Source: a virus. From it: a DNA stretch of 22,796 nt. How positions within the stretch are numbered: position 1 is the first letter of the stretch; every line of letters starts with the position of its first letter. Shown here one piece after another: positions 2,920 through 22,796 of this stretch. Position numbers and translations under genes: made by a program. The stretch lies in UHGV virus genome UHGV-0317022. One strand, given 5' to 3'. Below the pieces are notes generated by a model. It made no database searches and was not told the origin of the DNA. It saw nothing but the letters and a program-made list of their open reading frames with translations.

Positions 2920-3789
<870 letters not shown>

Positions 3790-4681: not shown

Positions 4682-4689
4682 GAGGCGGC

Positions 4690-5556: not shown

Positions 5557-5640
5557 ATCCTCACCACCCGATTGGTGTTTTGCTGAGCCTGATAACTACC
5601 AATTTTTGTTATTACTATTCTACTATCGCTCAATCATGAT

Positions 5641-5760
5641 TGGCGGGAGTTGAAACCGCAGCCACGTCGTATGCAAGAACGTGCTGCGGTTGGCTGGTGA
5701 ACTTCCGATAGGGCGAGTATTGAATGATTTACAGCCGTTATTGATTTTACATATTTTTTG
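5641..5760. repeat. ~115-bp repeat element, copy B
   Basis: AAACCGCAGCCACGTCGTATGCAAGAACGTGCTGCGGTTGGCTGGTGAACTTCCGATAGGGCGAGTATTGAATGATTTACAGCCGTTATTGATTTTACATATT; direct repeat of 3868-3985 with a few substitutions. Confidence 0.6.
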
Positions 5761-5905
5761 TATGAAAGGATTAGCGCCTCCTCCCACCGATCCTCCATGG
5801 CTTTACGCCAGTGTCTCTAGGACTGCTATGTGCCAATAGGAGACGCTAGTGACATTATGCTATGTTAACGTATTGCACTAATCCATATTTCGATGGTCAA
5901 GATAT

Positions 5906-6376: not shown

Positions 6377-6480
6377 CAAAGTCAAAAAATCGCTAACGAA
6401 TGCAGAAGGTACCTACTTATGGACCGGTCTTTTATGGTCTGCTTGCCGCTATCTTTAGGCTCATTAAGTGAGACTTTTCG

Positions 6481-7899: not shown

Positions 7900-8203
7900 C
7901 CTGCTTGATTCGCACAGAACGCTGTTAGCAATGTCCGCTCCTCGCTCATAACAGACATTAACTACAGTTATGGTAGAAGGTATGCATGCTGGGTGGGGAA
8001 AGTATGAAGGAAAAGAAGACTGCTGCGCCGTTTGTCGTCACATTTATCTTCATTGGCTATGCAAGTCATAATACAAGGTGGGACAAAACTGAGACACATA
8101 AGGCCTCACAATGGCTTGCAAGGCTTTACATGTTTTGATGTGGTGGGACGTGTGAGCGCAGTGTTGATGGGGTAATACTTTGAATTAGAAGCGGATTCTT
8201 ATA

Positions 8204-8249
8204 ATTCGTAATGCGAAGGTCGTAGGTTCGACTCCTATTATCGGCACCA
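8204..8249 (+). other. Partial tRNA-Thr(CGU) 3' fragment (anticodon loop to CCA), att core of an integrative element; not a complete tRNA
   Basis: ATTCGTAATGCGAAGGTCGTAGGTTCGACTCCTATTATCGGCACCA matches the 3' 46 nt of E. coli thrW-type tRNA as I remember it. The upstream sequence cannot form the acceptor or anticodon 5' strands. Confidence 0.7.
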
Positions 8250-8340
8250 TTCTAACGTCTCCCCAAGTCTACTCAAGTATTTAAAAACCTCTTATAATCC
8301 GCATGTTAGCGCCCCTTTTAGTCTTTTGACGTCTACTTAA

Positions 8341-8413
8341 GTACCCCAAAATCTACAGTCAATTGGGGGTACTTTTAGGGGTATTTGCTGTTCGGTTTAG
8401 TGGAGGTACCCCC
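8341..8413. promoter_or_regulatory. Putative integrase arm-type binding sites / int promoter region
   Basis: GGGGGTAC-type motifs in both orientations: GTACCCCAAAAT (8341-8352), GGGGGTACTTTTAGGGGTAT (8365-8384), GGTACCCCC (8405-8413). A near-identical copy of the 20-mer lies at 22528-22547. Confidence 0.5.
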
Positions 8414-8415
8414 AA

Positions 8416-9630
8416 GTGAAACTCAATGCCCGTCAAATAGACACTGCCAAGCCAAAAGAGAAGGCTTACAAGCTGGCTGATGGTGGTGGTCTGTATCTCC
8501 TGGTAAAACCTAGTGGAGGAAAATACTGGCGCTTTAAATATCGTGTAGCTGGTAAAGAGAAGCTGTTAGCACTAGGTGTGTATCCTGAAGTTACCTTGGC
8601 TGATGCTCGTGCAAAACGTGAAGAAGCTAAAAGGGGTATCGCTGGGGGTATCGATCCGATGGAAGCGAAACGAGAGGAAAAGATTGCCCGGGAAACGCAG
8701 TTAAACAATACCTTCAAAGATATTGCCCTTGAGTGGCACAGCAGCAAATTAAAAAAATGGTCTGCTGGTTATGCTTCAGATATCCTCGAAGCCTTCAACA
8801 AAGATGTGTTCCCTTACATTGGCAAAAAACCAATCGCCGAAATCAAACCACTTGAACTTCTGAATGTGCTGCGACGCATCGAGGGGCGCGGTGCTACAGA
8901 AAAAGCCAAAAAAGTGAGGCAGCGGTGCGGGGAAGTTTTCCGCTATGCAATAGTCACTGGTCGCGCAGAGTATAACCCTGCCCCAGATCTTACTAGCGCG
9001 ATGCAAGGCCATGAATCTAATCATTATCCTTTCCTCACAGCCAAAGAATTGCCTGATTTTTTCAAGGCATTGTCCAGTTACTCAGGAAGTGCATTGGTTG
9101 TTATGGCGGCTCGTCTACTGATTATCACTGGTTTGCGAACTGGCGAACTGCGCGGTGCATTATGGGATGAAATCGATCTCAACAAGGCTATCTGGGAGAT
9201 ACCTGCTTCACGGATGAAAATGCGTCGCCCTCATGTGGTGCCTTTGTCTAAGCAGGCTCTTTCTCTTATTGGGCAGATTAAAGAATTAACTGGTAATTAT
9301 CCGCTTATGTTTCCCGGCCGTAATGATCCAAGGAAAACAATGAGCGAGGCTAGCATAAACCAAGTATTTAAACGCATCGGCTATAACGGAAAGGTTACTG
9401 GTCATGGATTCCGGCACACCATGAGCACGATTTTACATGAGCAGGGCTATAACACCGCGTGGATAGAAACGCAGCTTGCACACGTTGATAAGAACTCAAT
9501 TCGTGGCACGTACAATCATGCGCAATATCTGGACGGGCGGCGCGAGATGCTCCAGTGGTACGCCGACTATATGGATTCGCTCGAACATGGCGGTAACGTG
9601 GTGCATGGCAAGTTCGGAAAATGTGGATGA
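8416..9630 (+). CDS. int: P4-type tyrosine integrase
   Basis: 404 aa with the N-terminus MKLNARQIDTAKPKEKAYKLADGGGLYLLVKPSGGKYWRFKY typical of P4-family integrases. GTG start with GGAGG 9 nt upstream; sits immediately downstream of the tRNA-derived att core. Confidence 0.9.
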   Translation: MKLNARQIDTAKPKEKAYKLADGGGLYLLVKPSGGKYWRFKYRVAGKEKLLALGVYPEVTLADARAKREEAKRGIAGGIDPMEAKREEKIARETQLNNTFKDIALEWHSSKLKKWSAGYASDILEAFNKDVFPYIGKKPIAEIKPLELLNVLRRIEGRGATEKAKKVRQRCGEVFRYAIVTGRAEYNPAPDLTSAMQGHESNHYPFLTAKELPDFFKALSSYSGSALVVMAARLLIITGLRTGELRGALWDEIDLNKAIWEIPASRMKMRRPHVVPLSKQALSLIGQIKELTGNYPLMFPGRNDPRKTMSEASINQVFKRIGYNGKVTGHGFRHTMSTILHEQGYNTAWIETQLAHVDKNSIRGTYNHAQYLDGRREMLQWYADYMDSLEHGGNVVHGKFGKCG

Positions 9631-9758
9631 CTGGTTGCGTATACAGTAGTAGACTTTGAGCGACGAAAGAAAAGGCTGTGTCTAGGGTCGCTCCCGAAAA
9701 TCCGTACACCTCGACGGACTGGTACAGCCACTACAGTAGAGGACGCTGAGGTGTGCGT

Positions 9759-10556
9759 ATGATTGATATTCATGCCGAATTAAACGAATACAAAAAAGAT
9801 TTTATTTCTTTACGTGAATTTCTTGAGGTCGTGCTTAAGGTCGCTGGTGATGATTATGATGTTTCAGATGTCATAACTTGGATACTCAGGAGAATAAGCG
9901 GAGAACATATCCGCCTGTACACAGTAAATGAATTTAAGCTGTTGGAATCTTTTTGTAACCCGTATCGGGATGAATTTGATTATGATGTTCTTTATAGAAA
10001 TCTGAATGCGGTTCGGAAACGTGGTTGTTTACCTGGTGAGAGGGATGAAAATGGTTTTCTGGTGTCCGGTTATTGGGAAGATCCCGAATTTGAGAACATT
10101 GGATTTATAAGGGGTGAAATTTTCGCAATTTTTCCCGATGTCCTTGACGCGTTAACGAAGCTGGAAGGCGCTAACTCTTCTGAAAATGACGAGGCACAAG
10201 GACGCGATATTGAAAAGAAAGAGTTGCGTACAGAGGATGATTTATTATCCCAAATCGCAATGCTGGAAAAAGAAAACGCAGAGTTAAGGGCAAGGATAGA
10301 GCAGTTAGAGCAAGAGCGCCCGATACACTTATATAAATACTGGGATAAAGACCCATTAGCTAAGGCTATTGAGATTAGAAACAGAGAGTGGGCCAATTAC
10401 GATCCAGAAAATGATTTTGCCACTAGGGGAAATCAAGAAGCGATAACCAGGGAGCTTAAGCAGTGGGGGGCAAGTAATGCACTTGCAACGCTCATAGAGA
10501 GGACTGCCTGCCCTATTAACCGAGACAACAGCCAAAAGAACGCAAAGCCGGATTAA
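9759..10556 (+). CDS. Hypothetical acidic coiled-coil protein
   Basis: ORF with GAGG 8 nt upstream of ATG 9759 (the track start at 9753 is a GTG). Contains a charged coiled-coil-like segment LLSQIAMLEKENAELRARIEQLEQE. Confidence 0.55.
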   Translation: MIDIHAELNEYKKDFISLREFLEVVLKVAGDDYDVSDVITWILRRISGEHIRLYTVNEFKLLESFCNPYRDEFDYDVLYRNLNAVRKRGCLPGERDENGFLVSGYWEDPEFENIGFIRGEIFAIFPDVLDALTKLEGANSSENDEAQGRDIEKKELRTEDDLLSQIAMLEKENAELRARIEQLEQERPIHLYKYWDKDPLAKAIEIRNREWANYDPENDFATRGNQEAITRELKQWGASNALATLIERTACPINRDNSQKNAKPD

Positions 10557-10570
10557 CGCACCATACCGCA

Positions 10571-10714
10571 TACCCTGAGGGTGATTTACTGTTACCCTGA
10601 GGGTATTTTTTTATCTTCCCCGTCAATTTTACCATCACCCTTAGGGTAGATTTCCTCCCGATTACCATCACCCTTAGGGTTAATTTCCTTCCGGTAACCA
10701 TTAGGCCTGAGGGT
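10571..10714. promoter_or_regulatory. Cluster of five near-palindromic CCCT(G/T)AGGG sites upstream of alpA
   Basis: TACCCTGAGGGT at 10571-10582 and 10593-10604, CACCCTTAGGGT at 10637-10648 and 10669-10680, GCCTGAGGGT around 10704-10714. The two CACCCTTAGGGT copies sit in a longer direct repeat TACCATCACCCTTAGGGT(A/T).ATTTCC. Confidence 0.55.
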
Positions 10715-10783
10715 ATGAAAATATTCGTTATTTCTGTGCCAGGATTACCTCGTCAAATTGAGTAGACGTTATGAGGTAAATAT

Positions 10784-10981
10784 ATGTCAAATACGCTTAT
10801 TCGTTTAACAGAAGTTCAGCGTAGAACTGGATATAGCAAGGCATGGATTTATCGCCTTATGGGGCAAGGTAAATTTCCTGCATCAGTTAAAATTGGCTCG
10901 CGAGCTATTGCTTTCGTTGAGAGTGAAATTGACGAGTGGATTAATCAGCGTATTGCGGAATCACGCGGAACAGCTACCTGA
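10784..10981 (+). CDS. alpA: AlpA-family transcriptional regulator (excisionase-like HTH)
   Basis: 65 aa: MSNTLIRLTEVQRRTGYSKAWIYRLMGQGKFPASVKIGSRAIAFVESEIDEWI, the characteristic AlpA signature. Confidence 0.85.
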   Translation: MSNTLIRLTEVQRRTGYSKAWIYRLMGQGKFPASVKIGSRAIAFVESEIDEWINQRIAESRGTAT

Positions 10982-11058
10982 TTAAATGGCTACGGGGCTA
11001 TTTCCCCCAGCTATCCACCAGCAAATAAAAGTAACTTAATTCGATAGCAGGAGTTTTT

Positions 11059-11859
11059 ATGAAATTTCCAAAAACGCCCGTACAGGGGCGGGGCTTCGTT
11101 CGGCCTGAAAACCAGAATCTGCAAAATTTCGGCGAAATTATCCCGATTATTTCCGGCGTTATTGGCGGGAGTGAAACCACTATTGTTAGCGCCAGAGCGT
11201 TACATAAGGCGTTAGGTGTAGGGCGCGTTTTCCGTTCGTGGATCAAGGGGCGCATTGAAGAATACGGGTTCACGGAAGGCGTGGATTATGAGGTTGTTGA
11301 ATATTTGAGCCGCCCCGATCCGGTGAGCGCAAAATCTCGCCAGCAAACCGCTCTTGAGTACATCATCACAGTGAACATGGCGAAAGAACTGGCGATGGTC
11401 GAACGTACCGAACAGGGCCGCGCCGTTCGCCAGTACTTTATCAAATGCGAGGAGGAGCTACACAAGGTTGCGCCTGTTCGTTCCGCAGCGTTACGCCGGG
11501 AACTGAAAGCCCGTATCACAGTTGCCAGCTACTTTAAGCCAATGTGTGCCGCGCTGGAGGCGTACCGGGCTGAACTGGGTAAAAACACACTCCAGCACCA
11601 CTACACCACGGAAGCGAACATGCTGGCGCGTATCGTACTGGGTGGCATGACTGCAAAACAGTGGGCACTGGCGAACGGCATTACAGGCGAACCACGCGAC
11701 CACATGAGCACGTTGCAGCTTGAGCACCTTTCTTACCTTGAGCAGAGCAATATCACGCTGATTGAGTTAGGCCAGGACTACCACCAGCGGAAGGCTGAAT
11801 TAATTCGTCTTTCGCAGCGTTGGTTAGCCCGTCGCATGGAGGAAAACAGCCATGTGTAA
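11059..11859 (+). CDS. AntA/AntB-type antirepressor-domain protein
   Basis: N-terminal SARALHKALGVGRVFRSWIKGRIEEYGFTEGVDYEV fits the AntA-domain pattern. AGGAG lies 6 nt before the ATG. Confidence 0.6.
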   Translation: MKFPKTPVQGRGFVRPENQNLQNFGEIIPIISGVIGGSETTIVSARALHKALGVGRVFRSWIKGRIEEYGFTEGVDYEVVEYLSRPDPVSAKSRQQTALEYIITVNMAKELAMVERTEQGRAVRQYFIKCEEELHKVAPVRSAALRRELKARITVASYFKPMCAALEAYRAELGKNTLQHHYTTEANMLARIVLGGMTAKQWALANGITGEPRDHMSTLQLEHLSYLEQSNITLIELGQDYHQRKAELIRLSQRWLARRMEENSHV

Positions 11860-13159
11860 CGCTCTGACCGTTACAAAAAGAGAAAGCGCCCCGTTGCCGG
11901 AGCGCCTTTGTGAACGAATAGCCTACTGCGCCATATTGCTTACTGTCTACGAGGCAGATTATAGCGTTGTGGTCGCACAGAGTGAAGGCGCTGATCACCG
12001 TTACTACAGCACGCCAGAAATGCAGAATATTTTGCTGCAAAATGTCGTTGGTCACACTGTCCGGAAAGCAAAAAATTTTGCTGGTGGCGCGACTGATGCG
12101 ATTTTGTCAGGTCGCCAGGTGCTGATCAATCTGATGTCTGATTTCGTTCTGGATAAAACAAAGGCGACCGCAGAGGGCCGCCAGTGGGAAAGCTACATAC
12201 TTGAACGCATCGCCAACAATGCCAGATTTGCGGCTGGTGGGCAATGTGTCAGCTTTGCACCAATGACTCTATGTTTAACTGAGGGTCATTATGGTGAATA
12301 TGCTGGCTTGCTGGTGGGCTATTCCTGCTCTTTAACATTGCCATGCCGCGATGTTTTCCAGGTATGCGACCCCATTTTTGTGCGCCTGTACTCTTTAAGG
12401 AATTTCTCAAGGATAAACGCACAGGGCGCGAATCTGTTTGACTCATGCTCGTACGCTATCTTTCTGCGCTGTCTTTTCCGTGCCGGTGATGGTGTATTGG
12501 TTGATTCTTTGTTGGTCATGGCGCAGCCCTGTAAAACGATGCACCGTAGTTCCTCACACCACGGCGCTGGTGATGGTTACTCCTGTTCTTTGGCCTTGCG
12601 GCGCTGGCGGTATTCAACTTCTCGCTTTAATGCTGCTGTTACAAACTGCCCTGTACTTTCACCAGGCATTTTTACCGCCTCAACATTGTTCATAACTTCA
12701 TGCGGAACCCTTGCCGCAACTGTTTGTGATTTTGCGTTTACTGCTTTTGTCGCCATGTTGTGTACCCCTTACAAAAAACAAATGCAGTATGCAGGAAAAA
12801 AAATAAGTGTTCAACACTTGACGTGTTTAACACCTGGGCTTAAATTGGTGTTCAACACCTTGTTGATGCAAGGTGCAGAAACGACAACGCCCCGCAGTGG
12901 TGGCACACATGCAGGGCGTCTAACCACCAACGATAGCAAGAGTATCGAGGTAGCTATGAGAAATCATACCACACACCCGCAAGGGCGGGACTCGCACAAC
13001 CTGAATAAATACATCTGGCGTTTTATCGCCCTGAGCACGGCACAACCGCGCGTAATTCACATCGAGGCCACCAGCGAACAGGAAGCACGCCAGCAATCTC
13101 CTGATGGCTGCGTGATGGTATTCGCAGCCCGTATTCGCCAGGAGGTGGAACATGTGTAA
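11852..13159 (+). CDS. Open frame of 435 codons; probably not one protein (N-terminal ~130 aa plausible, middle looks non-coding)
   Basis: The start overlaps the previous stop (ATGTGTAA). The N-terminal ~130 aa look protein-like, but the middle translates as low-complexity C/S/T-rich sequence and crosses an AT-rich promoter/operator region. A possible frameshift or missing stop cannot be resolved here. Confidence 0.3.
   Translation: MCNALTVTKRESAPLPERLCERIAYCAILLTVYEADYSVVVAQSEGADHRYYSTPEMQNILLQNVVGHTVRKAKNFAGGATDAILSGRQVLINLMSDFVLDKTKATAEGRQWESYILERIANNARFAAGGQCVSFAPMTLCLTEGHYGEYAGLLVGYSCSLTLPCRDVFQVCDPIFVRLYSLRNFSRINAQGANLFDSCSYAIFLRCLFRAGDGVLVDSLLVMAQPCKTMHRSSSHHGAGDGYSCSLALRRWRYSTSRFNAAVTNCPVLSPGIFTASTLFITSCGTLAATVCDFAFTAFVAMLCTPYKKQMQYAGKKISVQHLTCLTPGLKLVFNTLLMQGAETTTPRSGGTHAGRLTTNDSKSIEVAMRNHTTHPQGRDSHNLNKYIWRFIALSTAQPRVIHIEATSEQEARQQSPDGCVMVFAARIRQEVEHV
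12319..12519 (-). CDS. Small basic protein (66 aa), possible regulator
   Basis: Minus-strand ORF MTNKESTNTPSPARKRQRRKIAYEHESN...; looks more protein-like than the overlapping plus-strand frame. Confidence 0.3.
   Translation of the reverse strand: MTNKESTNTPSPARKRQRRKIAYEHESNRFAPCAFILEKFLKEYRRTKMGSHTWKTSRHGNVKEQE
12576..12756 (-). pseudogene. Small DNA-binding-like protein gene with an apparent +1 frameshift
   Basis: ATG at 12756-12754 with AAGGGG upstream gives MATKAVNAKSQT, then a stop after 19 codons. The adjacent frame continues VAARVPHEVMNNVEAVKMPGESTGQFVTAALKREVEYRQRRKAKEQE to a stop at 12578-12576. One extra A near 12718 would explain the break. Confidence 0.3.
12805..12860. promoter_or_regulatory. 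Divergent promoter/operator region with three GTGTT(C/T)AACAC sites
   Basis: GTGTTCAACAC (12807-12817), GTGTTTAACAC (12823-12833), GTGTTCAACAC (12848-12858). A sigma70-like -35 TTGACG (12818-12823) and -10 TAAATT (12841-12846) with a 17-bp spacer overlap the sites. Confidence 0.5.
12956..13159 (+). CDS. Small hypothetical protein (67 aa), first gene of a coupled small-gene operon
   Basis: GAGG 5 nt upstream of ATG 12956; MRNHTTHPQGRDSHNLNKYIWRFIAL... Lies downstream of the promoter/operator region. Confidence 0.45.
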   Translation: MRNHTTHPQGRDSHNLNKYIWRFIALSTAQPRVIHIEATSEQEARQQSPDGCVMVFAARIRQEVEHV

Positions 13160-13376
13160 TGCAACATGGCCTGATGCAGCGGTAGACGCTATCAAAACGC
13201 TGATGGATTCACTTATTGAGATTTCTGCTATCGCTGGTGTGGCGCATAAACACGCAGCCAGAGAATCAGAATGCATCTCCCATTATTTAGCATTTGTGCA
13301 GCTAAAAGCCGATCAGGCACTGGATAAGGCCGGAAAAATTATCATGGCTGATGTGCAGGAGGTGCACCATGCATAA
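13152..13376 (+). CDS. Small hypothetical protein (74 aa)
   Basis: Start overlaps the previous stop (ATGTGTAA); compact phage-like gene packing. Confidence 0.45.
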   Translation: MCNATWPDAAVDAIKTLMDSLIEISAIAGVAHKHAARESECISHYLAFVQLKADQALDKAGKIIMADVQEVHHA

Positions 13377-13734
13377 CCTGTCAATTTCTGACCTTAACAG
13401 CATTCAGTTTGACGAGAAATTTACCGGGCAGTTGCTGGTCAATGTGGAGAACGGGCGCATAGTGCGTAATTACCACCTGCCGGATGGTGCAATTGCCGGA
13501 AGCGTTGAAGCATTGCTGGAACTGGCGGAACGTGCGCGACTGATTAAGCCGTCAACGAGCCATCACGATGATGATCTGCATTTTACCGGGCGTATGGTGA
13601 GTCACTACGAAAACGGCGTTGAAGTATCCCGCGAACGGCTGCGTGATGATTGCTGTTTCGGCACACTGCCGGAATTTATCGAGTTGCTGACCAGTTGCGG
13701 TTATCAGGTCATTCAGGGGGGTAAACATGCGTGA
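13369..13734 (+). CDS. Small hypothetical protein (~121 aa)
   Basis: ATG 13369 preceded by GGAGGTG; overlaps the previous stop (ATGCATAA). The track start at 13351 is upstream of this likely start. Confidence 0.45.
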   Translation: MHNLSISDLNSIQFDEKFTGQLLVNVENGRIVRNYHLPDGAIAGSVEALLELAERARLIKPSTSHHDDDLHFTGRMVSHYENGVEVSRERLRDDCCFGTLPEFIELLTSCGYQVIQGGKHA

Positions 13735-13960
13735 TGATCGTTTTAATTCCCTGAAACGGGAATTTGATGGCGCACCGGAAGATGCAGCGGGCGCATTGTT
13801 GAGCGTTGCTGACATGATGAAAGCTGCATATTTTCTTATCAATACCAGTGGCTACAAGTCAGAGGGTGAAATGATTCTTAGTATTGCGTCGGACTATGCG
13901 GAATATGTGGCAGAGACGCGTTACAGAAGAAAATTCACGGAGGATGTAAGCCATGCATAA
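13727..13960 (+). CDS. Small hypothetical protein (77 aa)
   Basis: Start overlaps the previous stop; acidic protein. Confidence 0.45.
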   Translation: MRDDRFNSLKREFDGAPEDAAGALLSVADMMKAAYFLINTSGYKSEGEMILSIASDYAEYVAETRYRRKFTEDVSHA

Positions 13961-14153
13961 TCATGAAGCGCATGTACCCGTAGTGCTTAATGTGCCAGAT
14001 GATTTCACCGGACGCGTACTGGTTTACCTGGATAAAGGGAAAGTGAAATCACAATGCCGACTGAAAAGTAATGAGATTGTTGGTTCTCCTGAATTTTTTT
14101 CTGAACTTTGTATTCGTGCGGAAATAAAACCGGAACTGCTGACAGGAAAATAA
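13953..14153 (+). CDS. Small hypothetical protein (66 aa)
   Basis: GGAGGATG upstream; start overlaps the previous stop. Confidence 0.45.
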   Translation: MHNHEAHVPVVLNVPDDFTGRVLVYLDKGKVKSQCRLKSNEIVGSPEFFSELCIRAEIKPELLTGK

Positions 14154-14157
14154 AACC

Positions 14158-14448
14158 ATGAAAAAGAAAAATTCTGGCTTTACTGCCAGCGGCCTCTCTC
14201 GGCCTGAAATCCGCCCCGGTGATATTTCCCGGGACACCAGACGCGGGGGACGGGTGGTTATTCGTCACGTTACGCCAGGCAATATCACCTACCGCCGTGA
14301 GGCTTACGAATATGACTGCGTAATGCCGCGCCGTCAGTTTGATCGTGATTTTATTCTGGTGGAAAACAAACAACAGGCAGTGGCGAGACGTGCAGCCACG
14401 AATATTAAAAAAATCCGGGCAATGTTGGTTGCGGGAGGTAAGAAGTGA
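14158..14448 (+). CDS. Small basic hypothetical protein (96 aa)
   Basis: ORF immediately preceding the primase gene; its stop overlaps the primase GTG start (GTGA). Confidence 0.45.
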   Translation: MKKKNSGFTASGLSRPEIRPGDISRDTRRGGRVVIRHVTPGNITYRREAYEYDCVMPRRQFDRDFILVENKQQAVARRAATNIKKIRAMLVAGGKK

Positions 14449-16250
14449 AAAACGCACCGAGTCTAAAATATCAGCCGAAGGATAAATTCACTGAGGTAAT
14501 CATTTTTGCCGGGACGGATGCTTACGCCCATGCTCAACACTGGATTGAAAGTGAAGGACGAAAACACGGCGATAACGTGCCTCCTGTTTACCTGGGGCCA
14601 AAGCAACTGGCAGACCTGGCGAATATCCGCATTATTGACGAGAAACGCCGTTTTGCGCGTGTCTATATCGCGGGGGAGATAGAGCCAATCCAGATCAATA
14701 CTATCGCTGAAAAGCTGGCGCTGGCTGGCGTACAGGAGGCGAAATTATACAAAGGTATCACCGACCAGGAACCGGAGAACTGGCGCGACTACCTGCAACG
14801 GATCCGCGAACAGGCTGAGCACGGGGAAGTTTCAGTGATGAAATTAGCTACAAAAAATAGTGGTCTACCCAAGCCTGCATTAAATCAGATGGGAGCCAGC
14901 CAGAGAGGGGAAGTGTTACTTGAACATTATGGAGGAGCACTGGCGATAAATGATGATTCTGATGTAGTTCACCATTACAACGGAATTGTTTGGGAGCCTG
15001 TATCTGATAAGGAACTCCAGCGGTCTATGGCGAAGATTTTTATTGATGCCGAAATTAGTTATTCGCAAAACGCCATTAAATTTGCCGTAGAGACAATGAA
15101 ATTGAGTCTACCTGTTATGGGGGGAGCGGACAGAAATCTTATTGGGTTCAGTAACGGTGTTTTTGATATCAGGACAGGAAATTTTCGGGAACACAACAAA
15201 AATGACTGGTTGTTAAATGCCAGTGAATTACCGTTCAGCCCGCCAGAAGAGGGGGAAACGCTGGCAACACATGCGCCGAATTTCTGGAAGTGGTTGCGTC
15301 GTTCGGTGGCGGATAATGCTCGTAAAGCGGATCGCGTACTGGCGGCATTATTCATGGTACTGGCGAACCGGTACGACTGGCAGTTATTCCTTGAGGTAAC
15401 GGGGCCGGGCGGAAGCGGTAAAAGTGTGATGGCGGAGATTTGTACCATGCTGGCGGGTAAGGCCAACACAGTATCGGCAAGCATGAAGGCTCTGGAAGAC
15501 GCAAGGGAACGCGCGTTAGTAGTTGGCTTTTCGCTGATTATCATGCCGGATATGACTCGCTACGCTGGCGATGGTGCAGGAATTAAGGCAATTACTGGCG
15601 GCGACAAGGTGGCAATTGATCCGAAACATAAAGCCCCCTACTCCACACGTATTCCGGCAGTAGTGCTTGCGGTAAACAATAACGCCATGTCATTCAGTGA
15701 CCGAAGCGGGGGGATCTCGCGTCGTAGGGTGATATTTAATTTCTCTGAGGTCGTACCGGAGAACGAACGCGATCCCATGCTGGCGGAAAAGATAGAAGGC
15801 GAACTGGCGGTAGTGATTCGCCATTTGCTAACACGATTTACCGACCAGGACGAAGCTAAAAGACTACTTTATGAGCAGCAAAAATCAGAAGAAGCGCTGT
15901 TGATAAAGCGCGAAGGTGATTCACTGGTGGACTTTTGCGGCTATCTGATGTCGTTGGTTAAATGTGAAGGAATGATGGTGGGCAATGCGGAAATAGTGCC
16001 ATTTAGCCCGAGGCGATACCTGTATCATGCTTATTTAGCCTATATGTCAGCGCATGGCCTGGGAAAACCAGTATCACTGACACGCTTTGGTACTGATATG
16101 CCAGGAGCTATGGCGGAATACGGAAAGGAGTATAAGCGGGCTAAATGCACTAAAGGCCCGGATAAAGGGCGAGTGATAACAAATGTTCTGTTAGATGATG
16201 ATGCTGATGGCTGGTTGCCAGCAGCTACAGGGATTAACGACAGAACATAA
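14445..16250 (+). CDS. Replication primase-helicase (P4 alpha / D5-like, SF3-type NTPase)
   Basis: 601 aa with Walker A VTGPGGSGKSVMAEI and a Walker B-like hhhhPD segment. GGGAGG 6 nt before the GTG start; followed directly by an iteron-containing origin, as in P4/PICI replication modules. Confidence 0.85.
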   Translation: MKNAPSLKYQPKDKFTEVIIFAGTDAYAHAQHWIESEGRKHGDNVPPVYLGPKQLADLANIRIIDEKRRFARVYIAGEIEPIQINTIAEKLALAGVQEAKLYKGITDQEPENWRDYLQRIREQAEHGEVSVMKLATKNSGLPKPALNQMGASQRGEVLLEHYGGALAINDDSDVVHHYNGIVWEPVSDKELQRSMAKIFIDAEISYSQNAIKFAVETMKLSLPVMGGADRNLIGFSNGVFDIRTGNFREHNKNDWLLNASELPFSPPEEGETLATHAPNFWKWLRRSVADNARKADRVLAALFMVLANRYDWQLFLEVTGPGGSGKSVMAEICTMLAGKANTVSASMKALEDARERALVVGFSLIIMPDMTRYAGDGAGIKAITGGDKVAIDPKHKAPYSTRIPAVVLAVNNNAMSFSDRSGGISRRRVIFNFSEVVPENERDPMLAEKIEGELAVVIRHLLTRFTDQDEAKRLLYEQQKSEEALLIKREGDSLVDFCGYLMSLVKCEGMMVGNAEIVPFSPRRYLYHAYLAYMSAHGLGKPVSLTRFGTDMPGAMAEYGKEYKRAKCTKGPDKGRVITNVLLDDDADGWLPAATGINDRT

Positions 16251-16277
16251 TACGAAATTTATAAGCTGAAACGTAAA

Positions 16278-16613
16278 GGTAGACGGTTGGTAGACAGATA
16301 CACTTAACCCTCTACCAACCATCTACTAATTAATGTTTTGAATTATATAGGTATTTTTAATGTGGTAGAGAGGTGGACAGTTTATTTTATATTTCTAAAC
16401 CACGGGGGGGTATATAAAAACAGATAGTTATGGGTTCATTTTTAAAATTTTTATTTTAACTATCTACACTGTCTACTATTTATTAAAAATCATTAATTAT
16501 CAATGTATTAATACGGTAGACAGTTGGTGGACAGTTTGCAGATTGTTTTTTTGTTATATGTTAATAACATTAAATAAATCAATCAATTATATCGGTAGGC
16601 AGTTGGTAGACAG
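16278..16613. repeat. Iteron-type replication origin
   Basis: At least five copies of GGTAGACAGTTGGT(A/G)GACAG-like 20-mers in both orientations (16278-16297, 16311-16327 inverted, 16363-16380, 16461-16478 inverted, 16514-16533, 16594-16613), separated by AT-rich spacers, directly downstream of the primase-helicase gene. Confidence 0.7.
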
Positions 16614-16621
16614 TTGTAACG

Positions 16622-17164
16622 ATGGGGCAAAGCATGACAAAGCTGACCATTAACAGAAAACCGAAAGGCATTTACGGCACGCCGCAGAAAACGATGCAGG
16701 CGGCGCAGCAGCAGGATAAAACCACATCGGCATATAAAGTGATGCCCGGTAACCAGAACGCGCAACAGAAGCCCACAGGGGCGACACCGTGGCGGCATAT
16801 GACCAAACGCCAGCGCAAAAACCGCAGACGCGTTAACCGCCTCACTGAGTTATGGCCAGAATTATTCAGCCGGGAAGCACCGAAGCCGCTTAAGGTGGGG
16901 ATATTCGACGACCTGCTGCAGGATCTCGCCGTCAGGGGGCTGGCATTCGCTCTAGGGGCATTGCGTGCGACGCTGGCATCTTATGCACAGTGTCCGCGCT
17001 ATTACCGCGCCTTAATGGCTGGTGGGGTACGCTACGACCTGAAAGGCCAGCCGTGCGGCGAGGTGACACCACAGGAACAACAGGACGCAGAAACGCGGCT
17101 GGTGGCGCTGAATGAGAAGCGCAAACGTCAGCGCCGGGCAGCAAAGGAGAAAACAGGCGCATGA
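16622..17164 (+). CDS. FinO/ProQ-domain RNA-binding protein
   Basis: LTELWPELFSREAPKPLKVGIFDDLLQDL ... RYDLKGQPCGEVTPQEQ parallels the E. coli ProQ N-terminal domain (PLKIGIFQDL ... RVDLDGNPCGELDEQH) as I remember it. Confidence 0.7.
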   Translation: MGQSMTKLTINRKPKGIYGTPQKTMQAAQQQDKTTSAYKVMPGNQNAQQKPTGATPWRHMTKRQRKNRRRVNRLTELWPELFSREAPKPLKVGIFDDLLQDLAVRGLAFALGALRATLASYAQCPRYYRALMAGGVRYDLKGQPCGEVTPQEQQDAETRLVALNEKRKRQRRAAKEKTGA

Positions 17165-17448
17165 TTCACGACAGTAAAGCCGAAGCACTGGAAGCGCGTG
17201 GTCTGTACCGGAGAGCGGCGGCGCGGTGGGCTGAGGTCATTATGCTGGCGAACGGTGACAAGGCACGGGAACAGGCGGCAAAACGTCGAGCGGAATGTAT
17301 CCACAAGGCAGCACGCCCGCCAGTAAGGCAGGATAATTTCGGGGAGATGCGCGACACCATCAGCCGGGCACATGCCGGGATGGGATTACATCAGCCCAAT
17401 GGTGAGGCATTCAGGAAATACCCTGGATCGAAAAATTGCAATCAGTGA
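17161..17448 (+). CDS. PerC/Pch-family transcriptional regulator-like protein
   Basis: 95 aa starting MIHDSKAEALEARGLYRRAAARWAEVIM, which resembles the PerC/Pch N-terminal signature from memory. Start overlaps the previous stop (ATGA). Confidence 0.55.
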   Translation: MIHDSKAEALEARGLYRRAAARWAEVIMLANGDKAREQAAKRRAECIHKAARPPVRQDNFGEMRDTISRAHAGMGLHQPNGEAFRKYPGSKNCNQ

Positions 17449-17649
17449 CGGAGGCCGGGATTTTTCCCGGCTTTTTTGTGCCAGTAAAAAGCCCGCAGCC
17501 AGAAGTGTTGCGGGCTTTGTTTTTCAGGTGATTGAAGTCAATGGGAAGAACGCGATCATCATGCGTTATCGTTTCATAAATTGCAATGATATAGATCGTC
17601 ATTTCAGTTTATGCAATCATAACCATTGTTTTGTTCAGGAGGTATGACT

Positions 17650-17823
17650 ATGAGAAAAGCCAGCGTGAAACCCGTTTTACTCGCTCGTGATCAGATTGAA
17701 GCATTACAGCGCATCCAGGACGAGGAACGCCGCAATTCTCCGCTGGGGATTGCTCCGAGTATTCATGAGGTCGCCCGACGTTTAATGCAGCGGGCGCTTT
17801 ATCCCGTAGAACGTCCGGCCTGA
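17650..17823 (+). CDS. Small hypothetical protein (57 aa)
   Basis: AGGAGG 7 nt upstream of ATG 17650 (MRKASVKPVLLARDQIEALQRIQDEERR...). The track ORF starts earlier, at 17626. Confidence 0.45.
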   Translation: MRKASVKPVLLARDQIEALQRIQDEERRNSPLGIAPSIHEVARRLMQRALYPVERPA

Positions 17824-17862
17824 TGGTCGTGATTTTTTGGTGAAAAAAGAGAGGTAGTAACA

Positions 17863-18447
17863 ATGCCAGCAAGCAAAGAAGATTTGCGATTAAAACTGAT
17901 GGAGGTGGTTAACGCTCTGTCAGAGTCGCAGGGCAGCACTCCGCAGGAGATTATCGAAATGCTGAATGCGATCCCCGCGCAGGATTTCACAAAAGCGGAC
18001 GAGGATAACGCTAATCAAAACATCGTCGCGTCAGTCGAAGATGAATCCTCACTGGCAGAAGCCCAGGCTAAAGCGGATTCCGCATACAGCAATATGGGCC
18101 GTCGCGCTCCGGCCCCGTTTGCTGGCGAAAAGTCGATGGATTACCGCAAGCGCGCATTAATTGGCGCACAGAGGATAGCGAAAAAATTCAGAGATGTGGA
18201 TATTCGTTCCGTTTCAGATTCTGCAACGCTGGCGGTGCTGGAAGATCAGATTTACAAGGCTGCTCAGGAAAGTGCTCAGTGGGCCGTGGAAAACACGCCG
18301 GGCCATTTGGGTAAAACCGTAAGAATGGATGAAGCTGGTCGTCGTATTACTGAATATCAGGGCGATCCGAACGTCTGGCTGAACGCCTTCAAAATCCCTC
18401 CCCGTCGCCTGGTCAAAATTAACGTTGCAAGCCTCTCGGGGGCATGA
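17863..18447 (+). CDS. Hypothetical protein (194 aa), possibly capsid/packaging-associated
   Basis: GAGAGG upstream of the ATG; no family recognised. Its position between the regulators and the TerS-like gene suggests a morphogenesis or interference role, but that is inference only. Confidence 0.55.
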   Translation: MPASKEDLRLKLMEVVNALSESQGSTPQEIIEMLNAIPAQDFTKADEDNANQNIVASVEDESSLAEAQAKADSAYSNMGRRAPAPFAGEKSMDYRKRALIGAQRIAKKFRDVDIRSVSDSATLAVLEDQIYKAAQESAQWAVENTPGHLGKTVRMDEAGRRITEYQGDPNVWLNAFKIPPRRLVKINVASLSGA

Positions 18448-18511
18448 AAAACGTGCTGATTTCAGCCCTGTCGGATTTGGCGGGGCTTATTTCTTATAAC
18501 CGGATAACATT

Positions 18512-19183
18512 ATGCTTTTAACAGAAATTGAGGCTGCAAAGCAAATTCGGGACGGTCAGCTACCGTCGCCTTATCAGTTTTCCAACATGTGGCTGGTTAA
18601 CCTGCGTATTACAGGAACCGGTATGGCCTACCGCGCCGAAGAAAAAGAATTTGTCTGGCGTTCACCGCAAACTTATCTCAATCCGCAGTTCCTGGAACGT
18701 TGCGCCGGAGTACCCGTCATCATCGACCATCCCGAAAGCAAAACCCTTGAAGACGTGGGCGAACGGTCGCGCATTATTGGCACCGTCATGTTGCCGTATA
18801 TTCGCGGTGACGAGGTGTGGGGCGTATGCCGGATTTACGGGCAGGAAATCATCGATTACATCCAGAAAGCCCGGGGGGAGGTATCCACCAGCCCGTCGGT
18901 TGTGTTTTGTGGTGCGTCCGGTGGGGCAGAAGTTCCTGATGTAATGGGCGAGGACAATTTTTTTATTGAGGGTACACCATTTCTTATCGATCACGTTGCC
19001 CTCGTACCGTTGGGCGTATGGGATAAGGACGGGAAACCATCGGGTGTGGAGGTAACAACGCCGACAGCAGAAGAGCAGCTTGCCGGAATGGTCCGGGACG
19101 TTATTGATGCAGCCTGCAAGCCAGCTCTGGAAAAACTGGAAGAAATATCCGGGCGGCTGGCTCAACTGGAAAAAGAAGGGTGA
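18512..19183 (+). CDS. Hypothetical protein (223 aa)
   Basis: Uninterrupted ORF in operon context with the downstream HTH protein; no motif recognised. Confidence 0.55.
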   Translation: MLLTEIEAAKQIRDGQLPSPYQFSNMWLVNLRITGTGMAYRAEEKEFVWRSPQTYLNPQFLERCAGVPVIIDHPESKTLEDVGERSRIIGTVMLPYIRGDEVWGVCRIYGQEIIDYIQKARGEVSTSPSVVFCGASGGAEVPDVMGEDNFFIEGTPFLIDHVALVPLGVWDKDGKPSGVEVTTPTAEEQLAGMVRDVIDAACKPALEKLEEISGRLAQLEKEG

Positions 19184-19189
19184 GTCATA

Positions 19190-19717
19190 ATGCTGATGAG
19201 TAAGGCAGAATATGCCAAACACAAAGGCGTAAGCCGCCAGACAGTTTACGACTGGATCGAGAAAGGCGAAGTGATCATGTCTGGCAAAAAAATTGATGTG
19301 GAAGCGACAGAGCAGCGGAACAGCCCACCAGCACAGGGGAAAGACACCATTTCTGAAATGTGGCCAGAAAGAACGCTGGAAATGACGTGGGGCGAGTTCT
19401 GGAAAGCAGTTAAGGCCAGAGGCGGTAAAATTCCTGCGCCAGCAACGGACGAGGGCATACAGCAGCGTGTGCTGGATGCAGCCGGGGAATTAGGCTGGGA
19501 AGTGCACTTTCTTGATGATGGTGCTATCTGCCTTGAGGATGATGAAGGGCAGCATTACTTTGAAAAATACAATTTGCGAGGTAATGCCAGGCTGGCAATT
19601 CGTATGCTGCGTTGCGAACTCTGCTATGTTGCAGGTGATTATGCCGATGAACTGGAATCATGGAGTGAAGCCGGGCTAAACGCCCTAGCTGAATGGGAAA
19701 AATCAGACCATCAATGA
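19190..19717 (+). CDS. Nu1/TerS-like winged-HTH protein, candidate packaging-redirection factor
   Basis: N-terminus MSKAEYAKHKGVSRQTVYDWIEKGEV resembles the DNA-binding N-terminus of small terminase subunits. A repeat cluster follows immediately downstream. Confidence 0.55.
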   Translation: MLMSKAEYAKHKGVSRQTVYDWIEKGEVIMSGKKIDVEATEQRNSPPAQGKDTISEMWPERTLEMTWGEFWKAVKARGGKIPAPATDEGIQQRVLDAAGELGWEVHFLDDGAICLEDDEGQHYFEKYNLRGNARLAIRMLRCELCYVAGDYADELESWSEAGLNALAEWEKSDHQ

Positions 19718-19722
19718 CATCA

Positions 19723-19945
19723 AAAAGTGTCAAGTTGAGCAGCTTGCCAGGTTGACACTTTACACTCTGAACGCGAAAAAGTGTCAACCTCGCTGTAAGC
19801 CGCGCCATTACTGGCCTTTCGCCAGATTTACCACGTCAAAAAGCCGAAAAAATCGCGAAAAGTGTCAAGTTGCCATGCTTAGAAATGCCAGGGGAGGTTA
19901 AGTTTTGTTAAGGTTTTTCCCGAAAAAGTGTCAAGTGTGTCAACC
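19723..19945. repeat. AAAAGTGTCAA(G/C) repeat cluster, candidate packaging-recognition or operator sites
   Basis: AAAAGTGTCAAGTTG at 19723-19737 and 19857-19871, an inverted TTGACACTT at 19752-19760, AAAAAGTGTCAACC at 19776-19789, and AAAAAGTGTCAAGTGTGTCAACC at 19923-19945. Confidence 0.6.
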
Positions 19946-20320
19946 CGCGATATACAGATTTATTAAGGTTTTGAGCCAGAAAGAGTTAACCGCGCCGCTT
20001 TAGAAAACTTCAGGCACGCATTTGTGAAAGCATCAAATGAAGTTCTGTCATACTTTGCAAATCATGCAGATGCATCGTTACTGAGCATTTTAAGTTACAG
20101 TTGATGCGGACTGTCCACTTTAACCTTTCAAAACGTTTCGTAGTAGGTACTAACTAGAATGCCAAGAGTCTTTCAGGTTCCGTGATGTTTAGCGTTGGAT
20201 TTGATATTAAGTGTTTAAATTCAATGTGTTACATTGTGTTATAAAGTTTATTGCTAACAACTGTAGGGTAGATGCCAAGCGCACGCTAAGCATGTTATAA
20301 TCATTTCAACTTTCATAATA

Positions 20321-21316
20321 ATGGATACGAGAGTGGCGACGATAATCAAAAATATAGCAATCAAAGGTCTTTTTAAACGGAAGGACATTGATTGGAGTTT
20401 AAAAGATGTGAATGTTTTAGTGGGTAAAAATGGCTCAGGTAAGAGCACGATAATTCAAAGTGTTTTTGCCCTCTTAAAACAAGAATTAAATGAAAGTTTA
20501 AGTAATGCTGCGTTGGCTCAAATAACATTGGCCAATGGAGGCACAATTACTCACAAAGTTAATTTTCGCGAAATTGACTCTGTCCAGCTTCTAAACCTAC
20601 TTAATAACCTTAAGAAAAACAGTATTAAAGGTAAATCAAAGGGTAAGGAAATAAAGGAGTTAAATGAACTTATTGAGTTGCTTGAATCGAAAAAAGAAGA
20701 CACTGAAATTAAAGAGTTCGGGATGGGAACTGTTAGCGTAAGTGATAATATTAAAAACACTAAGCGAATAAATGTTGAGTTAATATCAACTATCAATATG
20801 AGTGCCAATTCCATCTATGAATTCAAAAAAAGTGATGGTGAGCGCACCACAATTCTTGATATGGAAATTGCTGGTGAATTAGAAAGGTTAAAGAATACTT
20901 TCAAAGTAAGTGAGTCTAAAGGTATTCTCATAAAGGATAAGTTGGAATCAGCTATAAATAATTTATTTGCTGAATGTAACAAAGTTGTTTCTTTTAGTAA
21001 TGGTAACATTTCTATTAAGATGAGTGATTCTGGTGAAGATATTAGGTATAATCTTCTTTCATCAGGTGAACGTCAGTTGTTATATATTCTGATTAAAACA
21101 GCTAATACTTCATTGGATGAATCTGTCTTGTTGATGGATGAGCCAGAAATATCCTTGCACCTTACGTGGCAAGAAAGATTAATAAGCACCATCAAATCAA
21201 TTAACGATAATTGTCAGTTAATTATTGTTACTCATAGTCCTGCAATATTAATGAAAGGCTGGATGGATTCTTTCGTAGATATAAAAAATATTTCAAAGGA
21301 ATCTTCTCATGACTGA
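20321..21316 (+). CDS. ABC-type ATPase (AAA_21/AAA_15-like), ATPase component of a two-gene OLD/PARIS/AbiL-like cassette
   Basis: Walker A VGKNGSGKST, ABC signature-like LSSGERQLLYIL, Walker B LLMDEPEISLH, H-loop VTHSP. The gene is visibly AT-rich and its stop overlaps the start of the downstream TOPRIM-like gene. Confidence 0.8.
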   Translation: MDTRVATIIKNIAIKGLFKRKDIDWSLKDVNVLVGKNGSGKSTIIQSVFALLKQELNESLSNAALAQITLANGGTITHKVNFREIDSVQLLNLLNNLKKNSIKGKSKGKEIKELNELIELLESKKEDTEIKEFGMGTVSVSDNIKNTKRINVELISTINMSANSIYEFKKSDGERTTILDMEIAGELERLKNTFKVSESKGILIKDKLESAINNLFAECNKVVSFSNGNISIKMSDSGEDIRYNLLSSGERQLLYILIKTANTSLDESVLLMDEPEISLHLTWQERLISTIKSINDNCQLIIVTHSPAILMKGWMDSFVDIKNISKESSHD

Positions 21317-22289
21317 GTTTGAGGATATTAATTTTAGCGAAGAATATCTTCAGGTATATTGTATTATGGCTGGACACAATGGCTTTGTCTTTGTTGAAGG
21401 TCTAAAAGACATTTCTTTCTGGGAAGGCTTATTAAACGATAAAGATAATGATATACGTTTTGATATTTGTAACCCTACCAATAAAGGAACAAAAGGGAAA
21501 CCAGTATTAAAAAAATTCATGAGCCGAGCAAATCGATATGCCATATTTGCAATGGATAGTGATTTTGATTATTTATGCCCTAAAAACAGTACAGACTCAG
21601 AGATAATTTGCAGTAACAAGTTTATTTTTCAAACATTTGTATATTCAAAAGAGAGCATCGAGTTACACCATGAAGTCCTTGAGTATTGTCTTTCTCAAAT
21701 AAAGATCGCTACTGAAATTAAATTCGATTTTACAGCATACATTACAGAGTATTCACGGTTGATCTACCCCGTGCTGAAGAAATTTTTATTGCTTAAACAG
21801 CATCAAGTTAGACTTGATGACTCAGTTTTCCATGAAGCGATTGCTCCTTCTGTGCCACGATTAACGAACCAATTTGTTATCAAAAATGCTGTATTTGAAA
21901 GTATGCAGCAATCTAAAGCGGTTATTGAAGAAAAACTTGATAACCTTATTCAAGATGAATACGATGCTGATAAATTCTATGAGCAGTTATATGATAAAGG
22001 ATTGAGAGAAGATAACGCCTATCAATATATCAATGGTCATTTTTTAGCTGATAGAGTTGTCATGCCTGTCATAAAATCATTGATAGAGCAATTGAATATT
22101 AATGAAACTGCCTTAATAGTCAAACAATGCAAAGATAAACCAACCTTAATCTCGGAAAGAAAGAGTGAGCTAAAAAATATTCTTGAAACTGATTTGAATA
22201 TTAATACGCTATTACACTGTTGCAAAGAAAAGTTCAAAACTCCTTGTGCTATTGCGATCAAAGAAAATGTAGCTCGAGCTTTAGCATGA
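21309..22289 (+). CDS. TOPRIM-like (DUF4435-like) putative nuclease, partner of the ABC ATPase
   Basis: N-terminal FVFVEGLKDISFWEGLL (TOPRIM E-G-x-x-D glutamate motif) and AIFAMDSDFDY (DxD motif). AAGGAA 8 nt upstream of the ATG; 8-nt overlap with the ATPase stop (ATGACTGA). Confidence 0.7.
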   Translation: MTEFEDINFSEEYLQVYCIMAGHNGFVFVEGLKDISFWEGLLNDKDNDIRFDICNPTNKGTKGKPVLKKFMSRANRYAIFAMDSDFDYLCPKNSTDSEIICSNKFIFQTFVYSKESIELHHEVLEYCLSQIKIATEIKFDFTAYITEYSRLIYPVLKKFLLLKQHQVRLDDSVFHEAIAPSVPRLTNQFVIKNAVFESMQQSKAVIEEKLDNLIQDEYDADKFYEQLYDKGLREDNAYQYINGHFLADRVVMPVIKSLIEQLNINETALIVKQCKDKPTLISERKSELKNILETDLNINTLLHCCKEKFKTPCAIAIKENVARALA

Positions 22290-22300
22290 CAATGGAAAAT

Positions 22301-22329
22301 AAAAAACCTCATGCCCTTGGGGTTTTTTT
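22301..22329 (+). terminator. Possible weak terminator after the ATPase/TOPRIM cassette
   Basis: AAAAAACC...GGTTTTTTT inverted repeat flanking CCCTTGGGG. The stem is AU-rich, so this is uncertain. Confidence 0.3.
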
Positions 22330-22527
22330 GCTAATTAATTCTGTTCTAACAGAAGGTTATGATAAAACTTTTAAACTGTAGAAATAGAAAACATGACATG
22401 GCCTTCAATAAATTGAAATTTTATTCGTTTGGATATCTTTCTTAATTGACAAAGTGAATGAAGACATAAAGCTCTTAAATGAATAGCTTTTATGTTTTTC
22501 CCAGAGTCTAATCATACAGGCGCTTAT

Positions 22528-22547
22528 GGGGGTACTTTTGGGGGTAT
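22528..22547. repeat. Terminal repeat, right copy of the putative integrase arm site
   Basis: GGGGGTACTTTTGGGGGTAT differs at one position from GGGGGTACTTTTAGGGGTAT at 8365-8384. Confidence 0.55.
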
Positions 22548-22605
22548 GTTGAAAACTAAAACATAAAAATATAATAGAAATCAATTGGTTATGTGGTTTG
22601 ATTTG

Positions 22606-22625
22606 TTCCTATTATCGCACCATTT
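22606..22625 (+). other. Imperfect copy of the tRNA-Thr 3' end (putative attR core of the satellite island)
   Basis: TTCCTATTATCGCACCATTT versus CTCCTATTATCGGCACCATT at 8232-8251: same 3'-terminal tRNA segment with one deleted G and one substitution. Confidence 0.45.
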
Positions 22626-22636
22626 AAATCAATAAG

Positions 22637-22796
22637 TTACACATCATTAGTACCTTCCTTATTTTTTGACTGGGACAAATTTGGGACCGATGGGTTCAGG
22701 ATCGAGTCTATTTGCCGTGCGTGTTCGGTAAGGTGATTAGGTGCAAGGTGAGCATATCGACGAACCATTTCGATAGACTCCCAGCCTCCCATTTCC
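22637..22796 (-). CDS. Tyrosine integrase, C-terminal fragment (gene continues beyond the window)
   Basis: Minus-strand translation ...[52 protein letters not shown]-stop. The GGWE...[10 protein letters not shown] segment is the typical C-terminus of phage integrases near the catalytic Tyr. Confidence 0.6.

Follow-up and report, generated by a model that had tools for sequence, protein, structure and literature searches.

The UHGV virus genome UHGV-0317022 was analysed over a window of 22,796 nucleotides (nt), which is the whole stretch of DNA considered here and which ends inside an integrase gene. Close to the right end of this window, positions 22528-22624 most probably represent the right end (attR) of a ~14.4-kb satellite located at the Escherichia coli tRNA-Thr gene thrW. 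The satellite interrupts an Sf/P22-type att site, whose P arm and core lie on its left; on its right lie the P' arm and a second integrase gene (int). We assign a probability of roughly 0.85 to this explanation as a whole, that is, to the satellite attR, the phage P' arm and int beyond it, and the history of the stack taken jointly. The sites on which the explanation is based are the following.

8079-8203, plus strand: P arm of the Sf/P22-type att site, at the right end of the left prophage; contiguous with core and int in SfI, SfV, SfII and SfIV
8079 and 8144 (TGGGAC-type) and 8091 (GAGAC variant), plus strand: P-arm sites, conserved in SfI and P22
8204-8249, plus strand: 3' 46 nt of thrW (tRNA-Thr), nt 31-76, identical to thrW of E. 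coli 55989, without the 5' half of the tRNA
8233-8251, plus strand: satellite attL, left identity block TCCTATTATCGGCACCATT; satellite-specific DNA follows from 8252 in every related locus
8342-8347 and 8409-8414, orientation opposite to the doubled motif: inverted half-sites TACCCC in the left arm of the satellite
8365-8384, plus strand: doubled arm-type motif GGGGGTAC-TTTT-AGGGGTAT, satellite P' arm, 114 nt past CACCATT
22528-22547, plus strand: doubled arm-type motif GGGGGTAC-TTTT-GGGGGTAT, satellite P arm, starting 90 nt before CACCATT
22607-22624, plus strand: satellite attR, right identity block TCCTATTATCG-CACCATT, with one acceptor-stem G missing
22625-22640, plus strand: TAAATCAATAAGTTAC, which opens the Sf-type P' side and is the phage-type counterpart of AAAATCAAAGAGTTAC, the native thrW 3' flank
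22637-22796, minus strand: 3' end of the SfI/P22-type int, comprising 52 codons at 22640-22795 and the stop codon at 22637-22639; the gene is truncated where the window ends
22671-22687, plus strand: two TGGGAC arm-type sites 11 nt apart (at 22671 and 22682), in the P' arm and inside the coding end of int; conserved in SfI and P22

The 20-mer GGGGGTACTTTTGGGGGTAT at 22528-22547 has a sole other copy in the window, at 8365-8384, on the same strand and with one mismatch. The search was window-wide and allowed up to three mismatches, and no occurrence was found in 100 shuffles. A second window-wide search, for TCCTATTATCG(G)CACCATT with a 1-nt indel allowed, detected exactly two copies, 8233-8251 and 22607-22624, with zero expected by chance. 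The right copy, which reads TTCCTATTATCGCACCATTT at 22606-22625, lacks a single G at 22617/22618. Alignment of the two att copies, as proposed in the original prediction, was run and returned an identity block common to both that is interrupted by this 1-nt G indel. A copy of the left-end arm motif near the right end and an imperfect tRNA-Thr core, both described in that prediction, are thus present in the window. The predicted island of ~14.4 kb at 8204-22625 holds in its size and its right end, but not in its left limit, as the satellite repeat starts at 8233 and the unit measures 14,373 bp from one CACCATT copy to the other (8252-22624). The segment 8204-8249 corresponds to 46 nt of thrW and constitutes the neighbouring phage type's attP core; it is not the repeat of the satellite. 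A complete tRNA gene within the window was rejected, with zero detected by ARAGORN and only the IS009 and int-alpA RNAs given by Rfam. Promoter and terminator scans at both boundaries gave nothing beyond shuffled expectation.

The satellite is a discrete mobile unit of 14,373 bp, because the same unit is found alone at thrW elsewhere and the empty site exists. E. coli 55989, O104:H4 and many other genomes present the order proA, thrW, a 404-amino-acid integrase, a ~14-kb island, an AAA ATPase and a DUF4435 protein. In genomes carrying only the satellite, homology to the window runs from 8204/8233 to 22640 and is followed by the chromosome (LysR pseudogene, paoD). The sequence LR134270.1 possesses nearly the same satellite (99.1-99.9% identical, from 8204 on) straight after proA-thrW. 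The empty site, with thrW followed contiguously by TTAAAATCAAAGAGTTAC-CCCATATTT, was found in 948 of the 5,426 complete E. coli genomes. The reading in which the arm motif at 22528 belongs to the prophage was rejected, since motif and core occur in satellite-bearing genomes that are free of the prophage.

Twenty-two island right ends from other genomes were compared with that of the window. The doubled motif begins 90-92 nt before CACCATT in all twenty-two, with small variants, and mostly reads exactly G-GGGGTAC-TTTT-G-GGGGTAT. Homology to other thrW islands starts at window positions 22525-22527, i.e. at the arm motif. Several of the right ends have unrelated DNA to the left of the motif, and the AT-rich spacer between motif and core has diverged too. 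The twin of the motif at the left end (8365) is retained in relatives that are just 83-86% identical overall. The core with a single G is present in all twenty-two right ends, and it occurs beside the native flank and beside phage DNA alike. This implies independent insertions, so that the missing G is systematic. Two readings fit the missing G, either a satellite attP with one G and an exchange in CACCATT, or a deletion linked to integration that damages the tRNA fragment.

Further variants of the arm sites were observed. A different thrW island in ET490 (locus L016, ~19960-19985), with dnd/dpt and CbtA/YeeU as cargo, carries a variant of the doubled motif, GGGGGCAC-AAAA-GGGGGCAT, equally far from the same single-G core; the motif variant may co-vary with a different integrase. 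A left-arm variant that has lost 12 nt, in which the doubled motif becomes a single degenerate half-site CAATTGAGGGGATTTG, is widespread (loci L029-L040, L043 and L044, which are metagenome and viral contigs), and the islands with this loss may be immobilised. The inverted half-site GGTACCCCC (window 8404-8418) occupies the space between the satellite integrase gene's GTG start and the GGAGG ribosome-binding site, and is kept in all relatives. It may participate in self-regulation of the integrase gene by its own product.

When the sequence up to 8251 is joined to the sequence from 22625 on, the product is one uninterrupted match to the attP-int region of SfIV, SfI, SfV and SfII (98.3-98.8%) and of P22 (~81%). 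The satellite is placed inside the phage att site because the joined flanks match this region in one piece. The equivalent of 8204-8249 is annotated in the SfI record as the 46-bp attP core. In the window, the phage core (8204-8249) and the P' arm (from 22625) are not contiguous, but separated by the 14,373-bp satellite. Five copies of TGGGAC are present on the plus strand of the window, four of them within the phage arms (8079, 8144, 22671 and 22682). The original prediction missed the left flank, 8079-8251, as the other half of the phage att site. Another prophage of the same att type has its right end in window 1-8203, and the end of a prophage in E. coli ARS-C101 is homologous to window 7960-8251.

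The 52 residues of the second integrase, whose peptide ends in KNKEGTNDV, are 100% identical to residues 336-387 of the phage SfI Int and 88% identical to the P22 Int. Only the C-terminus of Int lies inside the window, with the codon of the catalytic Tyr at 22754-22756, within RRYAHL, and the int stop codon 12 nt after CACCATT. This agrees with the 3' end of a second integrase gene on the opposite strand, as originally described, and also with the claim that it is an unrelated tyrosine integrase reading toward its att, which is the lambda/P22 arrangement. Comparison of the satellite integrase with the second integrase revealed no meaningful similarity between the two.

Over window 20830-22796 (1,967 nt), 99.9% identity is shared with a viral contig that is itself identical to GCA_000492275.1. 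Beyond the junction, the contig of this type possesses a 387-amino-acid int (99% to SfI Int), xis-like and yfdT/R/Q-like genes, a LexA-type repressor and a lambdoid early region. A complete ~41-kb prophage begins at this junction in E. coli ARS-C101 and ends in the 46-nt tRNA block and the native flank, and a full prophage similar to that of ARS-C101 follows the junction in ET490. The frame of the fragment is intact and nearly identical to a full-length relative, and for this reason a real int gene rather than a remnant is favoured for the window, as far as the sequence goes. These relatives are in agreement with the further tandem element of the original prediction. The native thrW flank (55989, locus L001, 20319-20391) aligns over ~73 nt with a diverged int 3' end of the Sf/P22 family (locus L025, 18093-18166), with a local score of 65 vs a maximum of 33 in 300 shuffles. 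The native attB flank may be the fossil of an old prophage, which would explain why homology between phage and host runs ~18 nt beyond the CCA end.

Integrase subfamilies use fixed sublocations within tRNA genes, namely the anticodon loop, the T loop or the asymmetric 3' end (bioRxiv 10.1101/2020.11.02.365908). The satellite integrase, of the P4/CP4 type, would recombine in the last ~19 nt of thrW; an exchange at the tRNA's 3' end is proposed because the identity block comprises 18/19 nt. The doubled motifs at 22528 and 8365 would be the arm-type sites of the satellite attP, and are presumably bound by the Arm-DNA-binding domain of the integrase, to judge from their position and conservation. 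The Sf/P22-type phage would target thrW as well, via a 46-nt identity block starting in the anticodon loop. Since this block extends from the anticodon loop as far as the CCA end, its exchange would take place in the anticodon loop according to the sublocation rule. A model with both crossovers in CACCATT was dropped for the phage, whose block begins in the anticodon loop, where the rule also places the exchange. The tRNA core on the right (22607) could be the satellite-side half of the recombined site, or a damaged tRNA fragment left by a phage-inducible chromosomal island (PICI).

Arrival of the prophage first, followed by the satellite into the regenerated thrW, is the most likely order. 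The right-hand prophage would have integrated at thrW, and the satellite would have entered the regenerated thrW beside the int of that prophage. A second prophage of the same att type (1-8203) would have integrated at thrW last, or else the satellite would have entered the junction between two prophages. The bases in the right flank of the satellite are of the phage type (T at 22625, TA at 22633-34) vs A and AG in the native thrW flank, which argues that the P' arm of a prophage already followed thrW when the satellite arrived there. The junction from satellite to phage was found in ~10 of the 5,426 E. coli genomes, and the junction from phage to satellite in 161 of them; the latter pattern is present in 19 further contigs. 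All three tiers (prophage, satellite, phage side) are present in the complete chromosome of ETEC6333.

In this arrangement, the attL of the right-hand prophage is split by the satellite. With the attL core and the P' arm 14.4 kb apart, excision of the prophage would depend on excision of the satellite, and following the lambda/P22 paradigm, precise excision should need the prior exit of the satellite. A further step would be to regard the satellite in attL as a lock, by which a thrW satellite controls or times in cis the escape of a co-resident, possibly helper, prophage, comparable to what helper-embedded PICIs do with late genes, as a selected strategy and not a by-product of one tRNA gene being shared by two elements. 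We consider this idea rather improbable.

The second integrase could instead be a short dead remnant, the satellite attR being followed by a scar and then by the chromosome, with no functional element on the right. This is possible, although clearly less probable than a prophage beyond the junction. In LR134270.1, an int remnant with an internal deletion comes after the same satellite (99.1-99.9%), and yagU comes next; the int remnant behind the satellite in P15-25 and ETEC6333 measures 67 amino acids, and the 'empty' thrW flank itself resembles a fossil int 3' end. Nevertheless, LR134270.1 has a different, diverged allele as its remnant, whereas the 52 codons of the window are intact and fully identical to SfI Int, and the 1,967 nt of 99.9% identity lead to a contig with full-length int, xis-like, cI-like and early genes. 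The opposite order of arrival would have the satellite first and the prophage then inserted into its degenerate tRNA-derived attR, with the phage Int acting at a site having only TCCTATTATCGCACCATTAAAATCAAAGAGTTAC. The continuity from arm motif through int in ~10 genomes would suit this order, as would the CACCATT and ~16 nt resembling the native flank that are retained at 22607-22640. However, 29 nt at the start of the 46-nt Sf/P22 core are absent from the copy at 22607, among them the anticodon-loop part where the exchange is expected, which makes this copy a poor target for the Sf/P22 phage, and the phage-type bases at 22625 and 22633-34 are simply explained by the prophage arriving first. 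The insertion of the prophage at the degenerate tRNA copy, as originally predicted, is for the same reasons probably incorrect, and we regard the satellite-first order as unlikely.

Both flanks could also belong to one phage genome with a satellite in its own attP, either as a phage::satellite cointegrate or with the satellite inserted at the attP junction of a tandem double lysogen of that phage. Removal of the satellite restores a perfect Sf-type attP, the flanks share an orientation, as they would on a circularly permuted phage map, and any site holding the 3' end of thrW is a satellite target. Nonetheless, a free cointegrate without an intact attP of either element could not integrate, and it would measure ~55 kb vs a phage genome of ~40 kb. 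Relatives place the left flank on a lambda-like siphovirus and the right flank on an SfV/e14-like myovirus, which fits two different phages, and chromosomal stacks of this kind exist (ETEC6333), so a single phage genome appears very improbable. That the repeats are chance similarities and mark no boundary of a mobile element is practically negligible as an explanation. The repeats are short, but nothing else speaks for chance, as shuffling never produced the motif or the core, homology with many genomes breaks at exactly these points, an empty site exists, and motif and spacing are kept in otherwise unrelated arms.

Several observations weigh against the preferred explanation, a satellite attR followed by the P' arm and int of a prophage that arrived earlier. 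The window includes just 157 nt of int, and in LR134270.1 (internally deleted), P15-25 and ETEC6333 (67 amino acids) a remnant int follows such a satellite. None of the complete E. coli genomes covers at least 80% of the window. The exact junction of satellite and int, used as a 48-nt query, had no match in species-representative genomes and metagenome contigs; the query recovered one viral contig, which is 99.9% and not 100% identical. Among the satellite copies found by exact look-up of the AriB and primase proteins, the order phage-satellite-phage was absent. In addition, the proposed crossover positions are derived from identity blocks, the indel and the tRNA-sublocation rule, and the proposed binding of the motif by the integrase from its position and conservation only.

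The element between the CACCATT copies fits a PICI-like satellite in its predicted gene content. The main genes and RNA of the satellite are the following.

8416-9630, plus strand: satellite integrase, 404 amino acids, P4/CP4-like (Pfam Arm-DNA-bind_3, Phage_int_M, Phage_integrase)
9675-9742: int-alpA RNA, just downstream of the satellite integrase gene (Rfam, above gathering score, 45.5 bits)
14445-16250: D5_N/DUF5906/Pox_D5 primase (Pfam)
20321-22289, plus strand: PARIS pair AriA (AAA_15/AAA_21 ATPase) and AriB (DUF4435), the last satellite cargo before the boundary

The satellite integrase gene adjoins attL and reads away from it, and its product possesses an N-terminal Arm-DNA-binding domain; the domain matches in PDB correspond to CPS-53 and CP4-like integrases. 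The open reading frame at 10784-10981 matches the PHROG 'excisionase and transcriptional regulator', and its equivalent of 65 amino acids in relatives belongs to Pfam Phage_AlpA. Pfam also revealed an AntA/Bro protein, ProQ/FinO and PerC, and a TerS-like gene (small terminase subunit) in the late zone was detected by a weak match. The PADLOC scores of AriA and AriB were 2.6e-43 and 3.6e-22, respectively, and the two genes are adjacent, as a predicted PARIS system requires. The PARIS region, with ~32% G+C, lies directly before the P-arm motif. Other versions of the satellite carry a different gene at this position, e.g. one for an ORC/CDC6-like protein, which suggests a variable cargo slot. Similar to the island of 55989, the satellite of the window has the same boundaries and the PARIS end, but it is mosaic inside, with a NUDIX/DUF2213 late zone like that of ARS-C101.

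Two sets of repeats were found within the satellite. Three copies of the 20-nt repeat GGTAGACGGTTGGTAGACAG and its variants are present at 16278-16613, between the genes for the primase and ProQ, and they resemble replication-origin iterons. Three copies of the ~23-nt repeat TTACCATCACCCTTAGGGTAGAT, two of them as a 33-nt tandem, are present at 10586-10694, just upstream of the AlpA-type gene at 10784, and may be operator sites.

The left-hand prophage (1-8203) encodes a side tail fibre of the lambda-like type together with its assembly protein; next comes defence cargo, in the place that gtrABC takes in Sf phages and P22. The features detected there are the following.

2609-2807: IS009 RNA, inside the tail-fibre assembly gene (Rfam, above gathering score, 225.7 bits)
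2920-3744, minus strand: PD-T4-3 (GIY-YIG), 8.7e-140
4322-5211: CapH/CapP-like pair of helix-turn-helix protein and M78 peptidase
6481-7899: PD-T7-1-like protein, 2.8e-69

A direct repeat of 103 nt, 91% identical between its copies at 3881-3983 and 5653-5755, brackets the CapH/CapP-like cassette. Instead of the segment between the repeat points, E. coli VTB97585v has a Dcm methylase and a type II restriction enzyme. The 103-nt repeats resemble the borders of an exchangeable defence slot.

With these assignments, the limits of the satellite are fixed at 8252-22624, together with its att copies and arm motifs. The half tRNA at 8204 belongs to the phage att site and not to the satellite, and prophage callers would probably merge the three elements present here. 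The flank variant after each att copy can give the order of arrival in thrW stacks. The doubled GGGGGTAC/T motif extends the attP layout of one clade of PICI integrases (~80 nt upstream, ~130 nt downstream) to thrW-specific islands. If the splitting of attL is true, satellites at shared tRNA sites could gate the excision of prophages, which is speculative.

The int-attP module corresponds to that of the thrW-specific Shigella serotype-converting phages SfI, SfV, SfII and SfIV and of Salmonella phage P22, with the same 46-bp core equal to the 3' end of thrW, TGGGAC sites on both arms and int reading toward att. Unlike in the Sf phages and P22, the core and the P' arm are 14.4 kb apart, and defence genes (PD-T4-3, CapH/CapP-like, PD-T7-1-like) replace gtrABC to the left of the P arm. 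The satellite resembles PICIs with a P4-like integrase (PMC10111431) and the thrW islands of 55989 and O104:H4, being alike in the gene order int, AlpA, AntA/Bro, primase, PerC and then a late zone with a TerS-like gene. It also resembles PICIs in its integration at the 3' end of a tRNA, in the damaged tRNA-Thr fragment at attR, and in a doubled, co-oriented motif ~80-90 nt upstream and 115-130 nt downstream. PICIs in tRNA-Thr have been described to leave a 'damaged' acceptor-stem fragment at attR, which prophages do not (PMC10111431).

In helper-embedded PICIs (HE-PICIs), attP contains the doubled motif TGTATTGC at 81 ± 2 bp upstream of the centre and 132 ± 2 bp downstream of it, and according to the authors the integrase may bind this motif through its arm domains (PMC10111431). 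The motif centres of the window satellite lie ~84 nt upstream and ~127 nt downstream of the att centre, so the geometry is similar, but the motif is GGGGGTAC/T and not TGTATTGC. Similar to HE-PICIs, the satellite interrupts a functional sequence of a neighbouring prophage, whose restoration needs the excision of the satellite. However, the insertion lies in the att site of a prophage, between phage cargo and int, and not in a late gene, so the element does not qualify as an HE-PICI. The layout also follows passively from the shared thrW target.

Tandem islands at tRNA genes (Islander/TIGER, PMC4383910, PMC7192596) are likewise composed of stacked elements with related att copies, an intact tRNA at one end and displaced fragments. 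Unlike in simple tandem arrays, two integrase families use different sublocations of thrW here, so the internal sites are hybrids and not plain repeats. All components are of known kinds, namely a stack in tandem at a hotspot tRNA gene, a thrW satellite that is PICI-like and has a damaged attR, and the SfI/P22 module. Their exact three-tier combination is without a match in the collections searched, and represents a new combination of these elements, not a new kind.

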